Shown here piece by piece: positions 9,001 to 12,000 of a DNA stretch of 12,711 nt. The position numbers are program-made. The stretch is from Archangiaceae bacterium. GTDB taxonomy: Bacteria > Myxococcota > Myxococcia > Myxococcales > Myxococcaceae. Where the stretch lies: NCBI GenBank assembly GCA_043750125.1, contig JAYVCD010000048.1, positions 1 through 12,711 on the forward strand. Reading direction: 5' to 3'. Every line of letters begins with the position of its first letter. The stretch's first letter is position 1.

Positions 9001-12000
9001 CTTTCCAGCGCCGACGTCTACGGACCCAGCCCCGAGAACAGCAACTTCCTCACCGAAGAGGCTCCGCTGATGGCGGCCAGCCGGTTTCCCAGCGTTCGAG
9101 ATCTGATCGAAGTCGACATGCTGGCCCACGGCTTTTTCTGGCGCCACCCCGCGGTCGAGACCGTCGTGCTGCGGCCGGTTCACATCGTGGGGCCGACGAT
9201 CAAGAACGCTCCCTCGAACTACCTGCGCAACCGACGGCCGTGGAAGCTGGCCGGCTTCGACCCGATGGTGCAGCTGATTCACATGGAAGATGTCGCCCGC
9301 GCGATGGTCGAGGCGCTCAAAGAAGGCCGCAAAGGCGTCTACAACGTCGTCGGCCCCGGAGCGGTCCCCCTTTCCGCGGTGTTCAAAGAGCTCGGCGCAA
9401 AGCCGCTGGCGATTCCCCACCCCCTGGCCCGCCCGATGTTGAGGGCGCTCTTCAAGTACCGGCTGGCCAGCTTCCCCCCCGAAGAGCTCGACCACATTCA
9501 GGTCCTCTGCATGGTCGACGGGGCGCGGTGGCAGCAAGAGACCCAATGGCAGGCCGCCCACTCGATGCGCGAGACGATTCGCTCCGTGTTGGGGGAGTAA
9601 CTGACATCGCCGTCGTGGATGAGATCCACCTACATCGACGGTTTGTGCCGTCAACCGCCCTGAATCGTTGAGTTCGCTCGCCAGGTCCGTCGTGGCACCC
9701 CGATTGCTCTAGTGGTGACTCGGTAAGGGGGTTCCATTGGGGAACTCCCGACGCCCGTCGCCTCGGCCGGCCCCGAGACGACGGGCGGTTTTTTTTGTCC
9801 AATCGTCTTTTTGCTAGAGCTTCATCTCGCTCGCGAAAGGGCCGCCGTCCTGACTGTCCAGCTTCCAGGCTTTGTTCTTCCAGATCCAATTGCTGGTCAC
9901 GGTCGAGTCCTGCTCGGTCGCCGACGGCAGCCGGTACCACTTGATGTGCGAGACCGCGGCGGCCTTGAGCAGGTCTAAGGAAATCTTCGCGTCCTGCAGC
10001 TCGTAGTCGGTGATGAAGAGGTCCCGCTCGTCTTTCATCGTCTTGCGCGCTTGCAGGAAGGCGTCTTTTTTCTCAGGCACCAGCAGCTCGCCAATGGTCT
10101 GAAAGTCCTTCCACCGGGCCGCCTGGTGAAAAGCCTCGATGGTCGGCTTGAGCAAATCGATGTCGCCTTTCGGGACCGTCGCGCAACCTAAAAAACAGCT
10201 TGAGACAATGAGGAAGAGGGAACGCGTCATGGCGCGGGACGGTAGCACCGGCGGTTGGTAAGGTCCGCGCCCTCAAATGTCCAAGTCGGTGGTGGAGAAA
10301 TACTCACAGATTCTCGCTCAGGATCCTTCGTCGACGGTTTTCGTCGAGCTGGCCAAGGCGTTCGTCGACAAGGGCGATCACACCCGCGCGATCGAAGTGT
10401 GCCAGCAGGGCCTCTCGCACCACCCGAAGTCGGTCGTCGGCCGGGTGATGTGGGGCAAGGCGCTGATCAACCTCGGCAAGGCCAGCGAGGCGATGAACCA
10501 GTTCGACCTCGCGGTGAACATCGATCGCGACAACGCCCACGCCTACAACCTGATTGGCGAAGTGCTGCTGCGCAAAGGGCTGTACCGCAGTGCGCTTCCG
10601 ATCTTGCGCAAGGCCGCGACGCTGCAGCCGAACGATGGTCGGGTCAAGCAGTGGCTGGACCAGACCCGGGCCGCGTTGGCCGGAGGTCCCGCTCCGATTC
10701 TCGGCGAAGAGAGCGCGATCGCCGAGGCAGGCGGGGGGGTAGCGCTCGGAGACAGCGACGACGCGCAGGCTACGTCGATCATGGCGGTTCCCGCCGAGGT
10801 GAAGCGGCCCGGAGTGCGACCGAAGCGGCAAGACGACTCGGCGATGCCGACCGTGGTGACGAACGCCTATACCCCCGGGGTCAGCTCGCCCTTCGACATC
10901 TCGGGCACCACGGAACTGCCGGTGATCGTCGGAGAAATCGAGCCGAAGACCCAGGCGCACGACGTGGGTCGGGCCTCGGCGACCCAGGAACTTCCCGCCG
11001 CCCGCGCCCGGGCGGAAGTCACGGCCGATGATTCGGACCCTTTCGCCAGCGTGCCCCGGCGCACCGAGACAGGCGAAGACGTGATTCGCGGGCTGACCAG
11101 CACCTTCGACGCGCTCTCCAACGGCGAAGAGAATGATCCGTTCGCGTCCTTCGACCCGGCCGGCCGCGGCGCCGTCACCCAGGGCACCGGGGGAAGGCTC
11201 GAGTCCGAGGCGACGATCATTCCTTCCCACGACCTGCTGAAGAAGGCTGAGCTCTTCGGCGCGCCCCTGAACGAGACAGGCCTGCTCGAAGACGTGGAAT
11301 CGGTTGCCAACCCGATGCCGGCCTCGCCGCCGCGGGCGCAGCAGCAGAACTACGCCCCGCCGCCGTCGCGTGCGCCCCAGGCGGTGCCGAAGAAGAGCAC
11401 CGGGTTGCTGGACGAGATCCCGGATCTCCACGAGCAGAGCTCGGTGCTCGAGGTGCCGAAGGTCGAAATGAACACCCAGGCGACCGAGGCGATCGCCAAA
11501 GAATACGAGCGGGAACTGCGCGCCAAGCTCGCCGCCAAGACCTCGAAGAAGACGTTTCTTCAAAAGCACGGGGTGAAGATCGGCATGGCGCTCGGAGTGC
11601 TGGTGATCGTCGGCGGGCTGAGCAGCAGCTTTCTGCTCACCCGCCGCGTCTTCAATGGCAAGGACCTGCCGACGTCCCTGGGCGAAGGCCGGGCGTTTGC
11701 AAACGCCGACACCAAAGAAGCGTACGGCAACGCGCTCAAGTCGCTGGACGCGGCCGCCTCGATGGACTCCAGCAACGCCGAAGTCTGGGCTTTGACCGCG
11801 TACGCGAACGCGATGCTTTACGCCGAGCACACCCGGGCCCCGCAGAACAAGACCGCGGCGATTTCAGCGCTCAGCCGTTCGGGAGTGCGCGACGCCTACC
11901 CCGAGCTGGCGGTGCTGGTCGATTGGCTCGTCTCGGACGGCGCTCCCGAACGAAGGGCGCAGCTGATGGCCAGCGGGCTCGACAAAAGCGAAGTGCACGC

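Follow-up and report, generated by a model that had tools for sequence, protein, structure and literature searches.

A putative sigma-54-promoted small RNA gene found across the Myxococcus family and repeated in tandem in one genus

The sequence data support a free-standing small RNA (sRNA) gene that appears to be driven by a sigma-54 promoter, that is found family-wide, and that occurs in tandem in one genus. It was studied in a window of 12,711 nucleotides, which is the whole stretch of DNA that was analyzed. The reading that we consider probable is a free-standing sigma-54 sRNA gene whose product would in all likelihood work in trans, independently of Hfq and ProQ, and would comprise several modules in Myxococcus. 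The following features of the window are used throughout.

7820..8665, + strand: acyltransferase gene (Pfam PF01553 at 3.6e-17), the syntenic upstream neighbor, equivalent to MXAN_1946 in DK1622
8662..9600, + strand: NAD-dependent epimerase/dehydratase-family gene (Pfam PF01370 at 4.8e-25; stop codon at 9598-9600), equivalent to MXAN_1947
9615..9629, no strand assigned: inverted repeat GTGGAT-GAG-ATCCAC, directly past the epimerase stop, read from the sequence
9652..9665, + strand: upstream box CAACCGCCCTGAAT, approximately 41 nt 5′ of the -24 element, IHF-like (CAA-N4-TTR) in many relatives
9693..9708, + strand: predicted sigma-54 promoter TGGCAC-N5-TTGCT, exact match, with the -24 GG at 9694-9695 and the -12 GC at 9706-9707
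9719..9726, + strand: predicted start (approximately 9719 ± 2, placed by the position of the -12 element) and short 5′ tail, which ends G-U-N-A-G-G
9727..9749, + strand: hairpin 1 of the computed fold, 9 bp, loop AUUGG (family consensus AUNGG)
9752..9787, + strand: hairpin 2, the terminator stem, 9 + 5 bp with one C/A mismatch, loop CCGGCC, apex CGG-CCGGCC-CCG invariant
9789..9796, + strand: U8 tract of the intrinsic terminator, preceded by G, read from the sequence
9814..10230, - strand: convergent ORF of 138 aa from the ORF listing, its stop 17 nt from the U tract
10277..12709, + strand: TPR-repeat protein gene (Pfam TPR families), the next gene on the strand of the sRNA, equivalent to MXAN_1948

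The canonical sigma-54 promoter reported in the initial annotation was recovered as an exact match to the -24/-12 pattern TGGCAC-N5-TTGCW at 9693-9708 with the spacer CCCGA (TGGCAC-CCCGA-TTGCT), and rpoN is encoded in the same genome (G000; PF04552 at 214.8 bits, contig C457). At least one match with no more than one mismatch arose in 49 of 200 shuffles of the window, and strict sites numbered 3 in the whole G000 assembly compared to 4.8 expected. Since the motif was no rarer than chance, its significance was dropped as an argument. A simple promoter/terminator scan, which recovered just a 6-bp piece of the terminator and found 2 sites compared to 1.8 expected, was uninformative because its stem model forbids an internal mismatch. 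Among 81 loose sigma-54 sites in G000, the site of the sRNA was the only one with a strong terminator (-28.4 kcal/mol) within 260 nt; three others were associated with weak hairpins of -13 to -16 kcal/mol. A single site with a terminator had earlier been claimed among 13 strict intergenic sites; the uniqueness holds in the loose set, whereas the figure of 13 was not rederived. Within the upstream box, the information content reached 0.8 bits at position -40 and 0.7 bits at -39, and the strict IHF-like pattern CAA-N4-TTR was found at -70 to -30 in 32 of 104 distinct upstream regions. Position-wise information content revealed no clear enhancer repeat conserved across genera, with only the AA of the IHF-like box emerging. 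The GTGGAT-GAG-ATCCAC repeat is present in the four closest loci, is absent as a conserved feature from other genera, and may be either an enhancer site or the 3′ end of the epimerase mRNA. A TCGC-N-GTC string that may recur approximately 70 to 90 nt upstream was spotted by eye. The Sigma54_activat domain was found in none of 108 long ORFs flanking 17 loci (a scan that left out the extra copies L187 to L189 of G105 and G108), nor was it found in the 12.7-kb window.

The computed fold of the RNA had a minimum free energy of -44.5 kcal/mol (z, -3.26), and none of 200 shuffles was as stable. Two hairpins followed by U8 give an RNA length of approximately 78 nt, in agreement with the earlier description of a short hairpin and a 14-bp terminator. 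With 14 bp, -28.4 kcal/mol, and a U tract directly after it, hairpin 2 has the makeup of an intrinsic terminator. Very little of the RNA is single stranded, and half of the C run lies within a stem. Alignment columns A7, G8, and G9 of the 5′ tail were at least 90% conserved. Loop 1 was ATTGG, ATAGG, ATGGG, or ATCGG in 117 of 122 distinct units, and AUNGG was kept in family f4 although the closing pair differs there. The sequence GGCCGGCCCC of hairpin 2 occurred in all 30 loci found by the covariance model (CM) and in 17 of 20 distant copies, and the apex GGCCGGCC reads as self-complementary. The loop sequences (AUNGG and CCGGCC) stayed constant while the stem sequences changed; the parts under sequence selection would be these loops together with the flanking G and C runs. 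No coding potential was apparent, with no in-frame stop ahead of the terminator and a loop triplet that varies between AUU, AUA, AUG, and AUC, the last finding ruling out a small peptide from the loop AUG. An ANTAR-type dual hairpin was likewise rejected, given that the first loop is 5 nt long, that the A1 is missing from the second, and that the terminator is hairpin 2 itself.

BLAST located the element in 58 of 61 family genomes (57 of 60 without the unpublished G049; both counts include G000). In a sample of the order, the CM detected it in f1 (44/44), f2 (1/1), and f4 (12/13); the remaining families gave 0/9 (f3), 0/4 (f5), 0/1 (f6), 0/34 (f8), 0/1 (f9), and, at 26 to 28 bits, 2/43 (f7). 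The phylum sample reproduced the earlier counts for f1 (21/21) and f4 (1/2), with a best score outside these two families of 30.4 bits. G032, an f1 genome that is 99% complete, had no match by BLAST or CM. The initial statement that the element is kept in the whole family, based on 23 of 24 genomes, very nearly holds, with higher coverage here; G032 is an exception to it, and the RNA occurs in f2 and f4 as well. A search of viral contigs for the apex-plus-U-tract pattern returned 0 matches. Compensatory changes affected 14 of 23 base pairs, a gain on the 7 of 22 noted before; by helix, they were seen in f1 at 7 of 9 pairs of hairpin 1 and 7 of 14 pairs of hairpin 2, and a divergent set showed them at 19 of 23 pairs overall and 11 of 14 in hairpin 2. 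The fraction of paired cells was 97.8% compared to 92.4% in shuffled alignments and 34 to 58% in slid controls. On all five covariation measures, 0 of 500 shuffles reached the observed value; one measure had not been significant in the earlier analysis. It is conservation and covariation that go beyond chance, and not the promoter motif by itself.

The promoter was found upstream of the RNA in 30 of 30 loci and before the first unit in 139 of 141, also where the neighboring genes differ. At 139 of 141 loci none of its 9 defining bases differed, in contrast to the variable bases on either side. Of 21 CM hits at a greater distance, 16 had the promoter. It was present at 11 of the 12 main f4 copies, the f2 copy, and the second copy of G018, where the neighboring genes differ. 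The leader varied in length from approximately 10 to 135 nt across loci, and the promoter was kept throughout. Conservation, promoter linkage, structure, and the modular repeats described below are direct observations. With its own promoter and terminator, no coding potential, and a conserved structure, the element has, at the sequence level, the attributes of an sRNA gene. We infer that it represents a new sRNA family that is transcribed, is switched on by an activator, and pairs in trans.

Multiplication in one genus, described initially as tandem duplication, was seen in genus g48 (Myxococcus and Pyxidicoccus names), with 2 to 3 CM hits in 10 of 10 genomes. The loci of Myxococcus carry 2 to 4 hairpin 1-hairpin 2 units after a single promoter, with a predicted RNA length of approximately 140 to 350 nt, compared with one unit at 126 of 141 loci. 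All copies of a tandem array stand behind a common promoter and are therefore modules of a single putative transcript, not duplicated genes. Inner units of the arrays retained both hairpins with degraded U tracts (median longest T run, 2, compared to 8 in 91 single-unit sequences), and the last U tract of Myxococcus is likewise interrupted (UUUCUUUU). Hairpin 2 is therefore conserved for more than termination, because the inner units keep the hairpins without the U tracts.

The syntenic position was confirmed on a broader basis than the 10 of 20 and 13 of 20 loci counted before. On the strand of the sRNA, the acyltransferase and epimerase genes lay upstream in 63 and 72 of 80 f1 loci, respectively (5 of the 8 loci without an epimerase have less than 900 nt of upstream DNA), and the TPR gene lay downstream in 72 of 80. 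The convergent small ORF was found in 75 of 80 (tblastn; median identity, 48%). This facing ORF, previously given as 113 aa, has 138 aa from the ATG at 10230 (144 aa from the GTG at 10248). It has no Pfam or NCBIfam match and is likely a lipoprotein, as judged by eye from a signal-peptide-like N terminus and Cys16. In DK1622, the sRNA lies between MXAN_1947 and MXAN_1948 (MXAN_RS09445/MXAN_RS09450) at approximately 2,283,110 to 2,283,305 (+); the annotated start of MXAN_1948 falls inside the last unit of the RNA, and the conserved convergent small gene is missing from the annotation. A full-text literature search for MXAN_1946, MXAN_1947, MXAN_1948, RS09445, and RS09450 found no paper, and four supplements of a Cappable-seq study (PMC8844925) contain neither the coordinates nor the locus tags of this locus.

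In one raw-read RNA-seq run of M. xanthus, the locus showed no enrichment; the depth was flat (29 to 42 for sense, 38 to 47 for antisense), and no cluster of read starts was seen at the predicted start site. Small structured RNAs are lost from standard RNA-seq libraries, and without its activator no sigma-54 promoter fires. For these two reasons, the flat profile is weak evidence against the sRNA, yet it is still a negative result. In Logan contigs of three RNA runs, the stretch lay wholly within contigs of 7 to 65 kb, which are uninformative on transcription.

Several readings other than a free-standing sRNA gene were weighed against these data. The region could be the 3′ UTR and terminator of the epimerase operon, with a nonfunctional sigma-54-like motif and no separate RNA; it lies 93 nt past the epimerase stop on the same strand, the motif is no rarer than chance in one genome, and the M. 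xanthus run showed no transcript start. However, the defining promoter bases are invariant between variable flanks, the motif accompanies the RNA to loci without an epimerase, and it is always kept despite the changing leader length. In M. xanthus, moreover, the epimerase-sense depth falls and 11 molecule ends cluster approximately 34 nt before the -24 element. Reads that end before the promoter mean that the region is not simply the epimerase 3′ UTR, and we regard this reading as highly improbable. It is very unlikely, too, that the element is a cis-antisense RNA or 3′-end element of the small lipoprotein gene, controlling mRNA stability through overlap or insulating the convergent units. The copies in f4 and the extra copies have no such convergent gene and yet keep promoter, RNA, and loops; the opposite strand has no T run, so the hairpin is not a classic bidirectional terminator; and insulation needs neither a sigma-54 promoter nor fixed loops. 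These points outweigh the proximity of the convergent stop codon, which lies 1 to 90 nt from the hairpin in most loci, and the drop in M. xanthus read depth on the convergent strand from approximately 87 to 103 down to approximately 38 at the hairpin, followed by 38 to 47 across the RNA. A leader or attenuator whose promoter serves the next gene on the same strand (TPR in f1, DUF7107/Dickkopf_N in f4), and whose terminator is conditional and yields to a loop-reading factor, would fit the same-strand gene that lies downstream in 72 of 80 f1 loci, at 8 loci of f4, and beside the second copy of G018, as well as the interrupted last U tract in Myxococcus and the MXAN_1948 start annotated inside the last unit. 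We nevertheless consider it unlikely: the downstream gene changes with the context, while leaders normally stay with their own gene; in 75 of 80 f1 loci the convergent gene intervenes, and read-through would run antisense through approximately 430 nt of coding sequence. In addition, U8 after a hairpin of -28 kcal/mol is a strong terminator, and no alternative antiterminator fold was evident.

A protein-binding decoy or scaffold RNA is a possibility that we view with some doubt. Its invariant loops would be sites for a lineage-specific RNA-binding protein, or its palindromic GGCCGGCC apexes would allow kissing between molecules or units, and with 2 to 4 modules the RNA of Myxococcus would gain in valency in the manner of CsrB/RsmZ or CrcZ. 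Invariant loops on covarying stems, modules repeated within one transcript with weakened inner terminators, a self-complementary apex, and an RNA that is structured almost throughout, with scant room for a linear seed, would all agree with such a role. The usual partners of sponges are missing, however: searches of 31 family genomes recovered CsrA from one and neither Hfq nor ProQ from any, and Hfq and CsrA were not found in G000 (assembly, 89% complete). Neither a CsrA-type GGA-in-loop motif nor a candidate protein linked to the locus was found, and the single unit at 126 of 141 loci would make a weak sponge. We tentatively offer a bolder form of this idea, in which the element would be a docking module: a new Myxococcales-specific RNA-binding regulator would read the AUNGG loops and the GGCCGGCC apex, an orphan enhancer-binding protein would induce the RNA, and the RNA would titrate or assemble the regulator, with the 2 to 4 modules of Myxococcus raising the dose. 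If true, this would be a sponge or scaffold circuit of a new type, through which the posttranscriptional control of myxobacterial social behavior could be approached.

For the preferred reading, a free-standing sRNA gene acting in trans, we propose the following course of events. Sigma-54 RNA polymerase would bind TGGCAC-N5-TTGCT, and some enhancer-binding ATPase would open the promoter on a signal, probably assisted by a DNA bend at the CAA-N4-TTG-like box approximately 40 nt upstream. The transcript would start near 9719 and end at the hairpin 2/U8 terminator, yielding a compact two-hairpin RNA of approximately 78 nt in this genome. This RNA would most likely regulate in trans and need neither Hfq nor ProQ: the C-rich apex exposed on hairpin 2, the 5′ tail together with loop 1, or both would pair with G-rich sites. 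The targets may be ribosome-binding regions of several mRNAs, as reported for Pxr and the TRIC-seq candidates in M. xanthus; for GC-rich 6- to 10-mers, approximately 160 chance target sites are expected per genome. In Myxococcus, with its 2 to 4 modules per promoter and weakened inner terminators, the active surface would be present in several copies on a single transcript. The sRNA would offer an output against which the orphan enhancer-binding proteins encoded here can be tested and a clean case of regulation by RNA in a lineage in which searches did not find Hfq, ProQ, or CsrA. Transcripts with 1 to 4 modules would also form a natural series for tests of dose effects.

Comparison with known RNAs returned no Rfam match at the gathering threshold, either for the window or for 6 homologous loci. 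A permissive threshold gave chance-level matches only, the best being ctRNA_pGA1 at 20.8 bits, which reproduces the earlier finding that the element is not in Rfam 15 (gathering threshold, 45). The Qrr1-5 RNAs of Vibrio are short sigma-54/LuxO-dependent sRNAs with a terminator and several similar copies, whose number differs between species; the copies are dispersed genes with a promoter each and depend on Hfq. The present RNA differs from them in that it has no Rfam match, its units share one promoter, and Hfq was not found in the 31 family genomes; dependence on Hfq or ProQ was rejected on the same survey. The sponge RNAs CsrB/RsmZ and CrcZ carry repeated hairpin modules per transcript, and CrcZ is sigma-54/CbrB dependent. 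Their partners CsrA and Hfq are missing here (1/31 and 0/31), the loop motifs differ, and most loci have one module. A CsrA/RsmA-sequestering RNA was rejected because CsrA was found in 1 of 31 family genomes and not in G000 and the loops are AUNGG and CCGGCC and not repeated GGA. RsaE/RoxS-type sRNAs of Firmicutes have compact hairpins and appear to act independently of Hfq, through C runs in their loops that pair with G-rich ribosome-binding sites. By analogy, the CCGGCC-CC apex could pair like these C-rich loops, although sequence and lineage are unrelated and the promoter type is another one.

Closer to this lineage, a TRIC-seq preprint on M. xanthus (10.1101/2025.09.11.675593) describes candidate intergenic sRNAs, reported to bind close to the Shine-Dalgarno sites of a number of mRNAs, and names the loci MXAN_RS10995 (2,640,187 to 2,642,286) and MXAN_RS24205 (6,232,678 to 6,234,096). 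The sRNA, at approximately 2,283,110 to 2,283,305, maps far from both, and the initial concern that it was the candidate near MXAN_RS10995 was not borne out. It may equal the candidate MXnc1, whose position the preprint text does not give.

In the literature searched, Pxr was the only functionally described sRNA of myxobacteria, and it shares with the present RNA the host organisms, an apparent sigma-54 promoter, a multihairpin fold, and an intrinsic terminator. The Pxr promoters retrieved have the same CAA-N4-TTG-like box approximately 40 nt upstream, and in G000 both promoters are followed by CTAGTG, which occurs at only 2 of 23 sigma-54-like sites. Tandem multiplication in one lineage, as described for Pxr in PMC5568312, is a further likeness. 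The two RNAs are nonetheless distinct, as noted before: the Pxr model (RF01812) scored 12.7 bits (E, 5.6) at 9696-9797 of the window compared to a gathering threshold of 80, and Pxr or a Pxr-like RNA lies on another contig (C31 in G000) or approximately 1 Mb away. Pxr is located downstream of the nla19 activator gene, whereas here an acyltransferase and an epimerase gene precede the sRNA and no nla19-type gene was found. Pxr has three stem-loops and not two; according to PMC5684412, SL1 and SL2 are conserved and SL3 is variable, in contrast to the 3′ terminator hairpin of this sRNA, which is its most conserved part. The pxr paralogs of Cystobacter have a promoter each, according to PMC5568312, and the same was observed for those of G022, unlike the tandem units of this sRNA. 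Pxr is reported to pair in M. xanthus with G-rich sites such as the ribosome-binding regions of several mRNAs. Across the same 151 genomes, Pxr was detected in 41 of 44 f1, 0 of 1 f2, and 2 of 13 f4 genomes (the last at 35 bits), compared to 44 of 44, 1 of 1, and 12 of 13 for this sRNA. Since it is kept in almost all genomes of the Myxococcus family and a sister family, the element looks like a second regulatory RNA beside Pxr, and it would be the second sigma-54-driven sRNA of myxobacteria and the more widely kept of the two.

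An epimerase gene (stop codon TAA, 9598-9600) and a convergent small ORF (stop at 9814) are separated by 213 nt, which contain a putative sigma-54 promoter, a two-hairpin RNA and a T8 tract, arranged as follows.

Features around the RNA (hairpins from ViennaRNA)
7820-8665: acyltransferase gene (PF01553)
8662-9600: epimerase-family gene (PF01370)
9693-9708 (+): sigma-54 element TGGCAC-CCCGA-TTGCT, exact match
3' of the promoter: RNA of ~78 nt, two hairpins followed by eight T
9727-9749: hairpin 1, 9 bp, loop AUUGG
9752-9787: hairpin 2, 9 + 5 bp around one C/A mismatch, loop CCGGCC
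9814-10230 (-): convergent ORF, 138 aa, signal-peptide-like start, no family match
10277 onward: TPR-repeat gene

The predicted fold of the RNA (-44.5 kcal/mol, z -3.26; ViennaRNA) was matched in stability by none of 200 shuffled sequences. The host genome encodes rpoN, and a CAA-N4-TTG-like box precedes the -24 element by ~41 nt. Of 104 distinct upstream regions, 32 contain its strict form, and the two A's of the box carry 0.8 and 0.7 bits. The position of the box would suit an IHF site at a sigma-54 promoter. The sequence GTGGAT-GAG-ATCCAC (9615-9629), a perfect inverted repeat 15 nt past the epimerase stop that only the four nearest relatives keep, might mark the 3' terminus of the epimerase mRNA or serve as an enhancer site specific to the genus. 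Farther upstream, the window holds genes for a PAS/HisKA/HATPase histidine kinase (49-1503) and a 1286-aa Ser/Thr kinase with an AAA_16 ATPase domain (2115-5975); no tie between the RNA and either signalling gene was found.

The promoter motif by itself was no rarer than chance: at least one match, with one mismatch allowed, occurred in 49 of 200 window shuffles, and the whole host assembly held 3 strict sites compared to 4.8 expected from composition. A simple terminator scan of the window was uninformative. The case for the RNA rests on cross-genome comparison. BLAST recovered the element in 58 of 61 family genomes (including the host and the unpublished genome G049; 57 of 60 without the latter), with identities of up to 96% in other genera, and TGGC-N7-YTGC was present upstream in all 30 loci fetched from this search. 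When one genome per species was scanned with a sequence pattern, 112 stretches matched. Myxobacterial names (Myxococcus, Corallococcus, Pyxidicoccus, Archangium, Hyalangium, Vitiosangium, Myxococcaceae, Archangiaceae, Myxococcales, Myxococcota) stood on 77 of the 80 stretches listed, and the other three were labelled "Comamonas sp.," "Proteobacteria bacterium" and "delta proteobacterium." In the BLAST and pattern-scan sets together, which share some genomes, a regular expression for the apex motif matched 141 of 142 loci (L027 is off by one flanking base), and exactly one promoter motif stood within 260 nt before the first two-hairpin unit in 139 of 141.

The 163 units reduced to 122 distinct 80-nt sequences, whose gap-free alignment was tested against the ViennaRNA fold of the window RNA. 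Standard pairs occupied 97.8% of cells, compared to 92.4% with shuffled partners and 34-58% with partners slid by 1-3 columns. Both-sided changes were observed in 14 of 23 pairs, and all five covariation measures were better than 500 of 500 shuffles; these shuffle counts overstate significance because the aligned sequences are kin, a problem from which the slid controls are free. Distant copies found with a covariance model (24 rows including three partial reverse-strand rows, in an alignment fitted to the model) displayed compensatory changes in 19 of 23 pairs, with 96.7% of cells paired versus 82.9% after shuffling. That loop 2 is invariant in the first alignment (122 of 122) is a consequence of the search pattern. 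Two checks independent of that pattern found GGCCGGCCCC in 30 of 30 model-found loci and CGGCCGGCCCCG in 17 of 20 distant copies, whose lower stem is wholly different (CCGCUCGCUCC/GGAGCGAGCGG in place of CGCCCGUCG/CGACGGGCG). Loop 1 reads AUNGG in 117 of 122 units and persists, closed by a different pair, in copies from family f4.

One unit was present in 126 of the 141 loci, two in 8, three in 6 and four in 1. Tandem units lie 70-72 nt apart and always share one promoter; all 10 genomes of genus g48 gave 2-3 model matches. Arrays were confined to records named Myxococcus or Pyxidicoccus and three doubtfully labelled records. The latter ("Comamonas sp. KCTC 72670," L101; "Proteobacteria bacterium OH_PFB_83," L069; "Corallococcus terminator BB12-2," L054) carry Myxococcus-type arrays of 2-3 units, the remaining Corallococcus records being single-unit, and their labels may be wrong. 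The median longest T-run was 8 in single units (n=91), 4 in the last units of arrays (n=11) and 2 in inner units (n=20; typical tail, GAUUCUUGU). Inner hairpins would thus be poor terminators yet have the same stems and loops, which is the main argument that hairpin 2 has a role besides termination. The alignments demonstrate conservation of a predicted promoter-RNA-terminator unit with two covarying helices, two sequence-fixed loops and modular repetition. At the Myxococcus xanthus AM003 locus (L079), two units follow a 70-nt leader that contains a hairpin of its own. Instead of forming two local hairpins, the two copies of hairpin 2 are joined in the minimum-energy fold of this two-unit RNA (L079:2486-2686, -), the first contributing its 5' arm and the second its 3' arm; folding thus predicts that tandem units can take an alternative long-range fold.

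The covariance model R1 was searched against 151 genomes of the order. Matches were obtained in 44 of 44 genomes of the host's family f1 (including genus g14, missed by BLAST), 1 of 1 in f2, 12 of 13 in f4 (60-67 bits) and 2 of 43 in f7 (26-28 bits only); f3 (0/9), f5 (0/4), f6 (0/1), f8 (0/34) and f9 (0/1) yielded none. Across 151 genomes sampled from the phylum, no score exceeded 30.4 bits outside f1 and f4, and the viral contigs searched gave no match. Even with laxer filters, G063 (f4, 100% complete) and G032 (f1, 99% complete) yielded no match. The family-wide conservation claimed in the initial annotation very nearly holds: every f1 genome of the order sample matched, and G032 is an exception.

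The same annotation feared identity with a TRIC-seq candidate near MXAN_RS10995. The accessible part of the TRIC-seq preprint (10.1101/2025.09.11.675593) names candidates near MXAN_RS10995 and MXAN_RS24205, plus "MXnc1" without a stated position. Gene coordinates in DK1622 were taken from PMC6791715, whose supplement files 10 and 11 contain gene tables.

DK1622 genes (PMC6791715)
2,281,091-2,281,945: MXAN_1946, acyltransferase, 855 nt, same as in L079
2,281,981-2,282,904: MXAN_1947, epimerase
from 2,283,290: MXAN_1948, next gene
2,640,187-2,642,286: MXAN_RS10995
6,232,678-6,234,096: MXAN_RS24205 (MXAN_4984), lipoprotein

The 385-nt gap past MXAN_1947 matches exactly the GTG at L079 2505, which places the RNA at about 2,283,110-2,283,305 (+). 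The candidate loci near MXAN_RS10995 and MXAN_RS24205 are 357 kb and 3.9 Mb away, respectively, so the suspected identity with the former finds no support. The annotated start of MXAN_1948 (L079:2050-2505; DK1622, about 2,283,290 onward) falls inside the last RNA unit, and its frame passes in antisense through the small convergent ORF, which is conserved but unannotated there. In the host the corresponding frame is closed and the TPR gene begins only at 10277; the annotated start is probably mis-called. A full-text search for the DK1622 locus tags flanking the RNA found no paper mentioning them, and a literature search for myxobacterial sRNAs returned only Pxr work, the TRIC-seq preprint and a citation of a 2020 ncRNA survey. 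This survey or the preprint's tables may already list the RNA.

In one raw-read M. xanthus RNA-seq run (X23), 659 reads were placed on the L079 locus at ≥90% likeness. First-mate depth on the + and - strands, respectively, was 29-42 and 38-47 over the RNA (2491-2707), 22-42 and 79-130 over the small gene, and 45-67 and 16-32 over the 3' part of the epimerase gene. The reads over the RNA displayed neither a depth peak nor a start cluster at the predicted start. This negative is weak evidence, since standard libraries lose small structured RNAs and the activator was possibly off. Epimerase-sense depth fell from 48 to 33, with a cluster of 11 molecule ends at L079 2745, ~34 nt before the -24 element, an observation that argues against a mere 3' UTR. 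Three further RNA runs, available as Logan contigs spanning the whole stretch, are silent on transcription. That there is no separate RNA at all is scarcely plausible to us.

Gene context is very stable in f1: among 80 loci, the epimerase gene lies upstream of the RNA in 72, the convergent small ORF is present in 75 and the TPR gene follows that ORF in 72. Most f4 copies are instead flanked by a kinase or esterase gene on one side and a DUF7107/Dickkopf_N repeat-protein gene on the other, and the second G018 copy adjoins hydrolase genes. TGGCAY-N5-YTGCT was kept 25-136 nt upstream in the f2 copy, the extra copy of G018 and 11 of the 12 main f4 copies; it was missing at 5 of 21 distant matches (L184, with a loose match only; three diverged extra copies; one inner unit). 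Leaders fall into classes of about 10, 35-50 and 100-135 nt, with the promoter retained in every class. By these comparisons, the predicted promoter belongs to the RNA rather than to its neighbourhood. That the RNA is a leader or attenuator for the next gene on its strand is improbable, and that it serves the convergent gene, a neighbour in the f1 loci, as a cis-antisense or insulating element is very improbable. Eight f4 genomes (L175-L178, L180-L182, L185) have the RNA directly upstream of, and on the same strand as, the DUF7107/Dickkopf_N cysteine-rich repeat-protein gene; L175 also has a second, degenerate unit without a U-tract (2157-2232, 32 bits). Dispersed extra copies give totals of four in G105 (L177, L186, L188, L189), two in G108 (L185, L187) and two in G018 (extra copy, L190). 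Of the extra copies, L186 (f4) and that of G018 (f1) retain the sigma-54 promoter; L187-L189 have lost it and have a diverged apex.

An independent sigma-54-dependent ncRNA gene is very probably what the locus represents. Sigma-54 polymerase would transcribe the unit when an enhancer-binding protein is active, and the RNA would act in trans, its C-rich apex (CCGGCC-CC) and/or its 5' tail and loop 1 pairing with G-rich mRNA sites independently of a chaperone. Among the 31 family genomes searched, Hfq and ProQ were found in none and CsrA in one, so chaperone-dependent and CsrA-sponge models of the usual kind do not apply. Base-pairing in trans is proposed tentatively, by analogy with C-rich-loop sRNAs. 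It is also favoured by a statement in the TRIC-seq preprint (10.1101/2025.09.11.675593) that M. xanthus sRNAs contact Shine-Dalgarno regions. The two fixed loops would also suit a protein- or RNA-docking module, which we consider rather unlikely. The reading as a whole, a free-standing sigma-54 ncRNA gene acting in trans by chaperone-independent pairing, is the one we favour with some reserve.

Neither the window nor six homologous loci gave a match at the gathering score of any Rfam 15 model, and in the window the Pxr model scored 12.7 bits against a gathering score of 80, in agreement with the initial annotation that the RNA is neither Pxr nor in Rfam 15. The host's own Pxr-like RNA (C31:12179-12285, -; L143) scores 53.9 bits, short of the 80-bit gathering score. 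It has the promoter TGGCAT-N5-GTGCT with AAGCCATTGAAT ahead of it and CTAGTG behind, the same layout as at 9652-9714 in the window. CTAGTG follows the -12 element at only 2 of 23 sigma-54-like sites in the host genome, those of these two RNAs; the likeness could reflect common promoter ancestry or shared regulation. In G022 (C1:8811591-8812986, -; L197), five tandem Pxr paralogs ~320 nt apart each have their own TGGCAC-N5-GTGCT promoter and upstream CAA-N4-TTG box, in agreement with the Cystobacter pxr paralogs described in PMC5568312. In the order sample of 151 genomes, Pxr was found in 41 of 44 f1, 0 of 1 f2 and 2 of 13 f4 genomes (35 bits), so the window RNA is the more widely distributed. 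The comparative evidence points to a genuine sRNA family that is strongly conserved and seems to be undescribed. It is of evident use to those who study myxobacteria or sigma-54, and its modular arrays and invariant loops are unusual. It would belong among the sigma-54-driven bacterial sRNAs, with Pxr as its nearest neighbour in biology, not in sequence.
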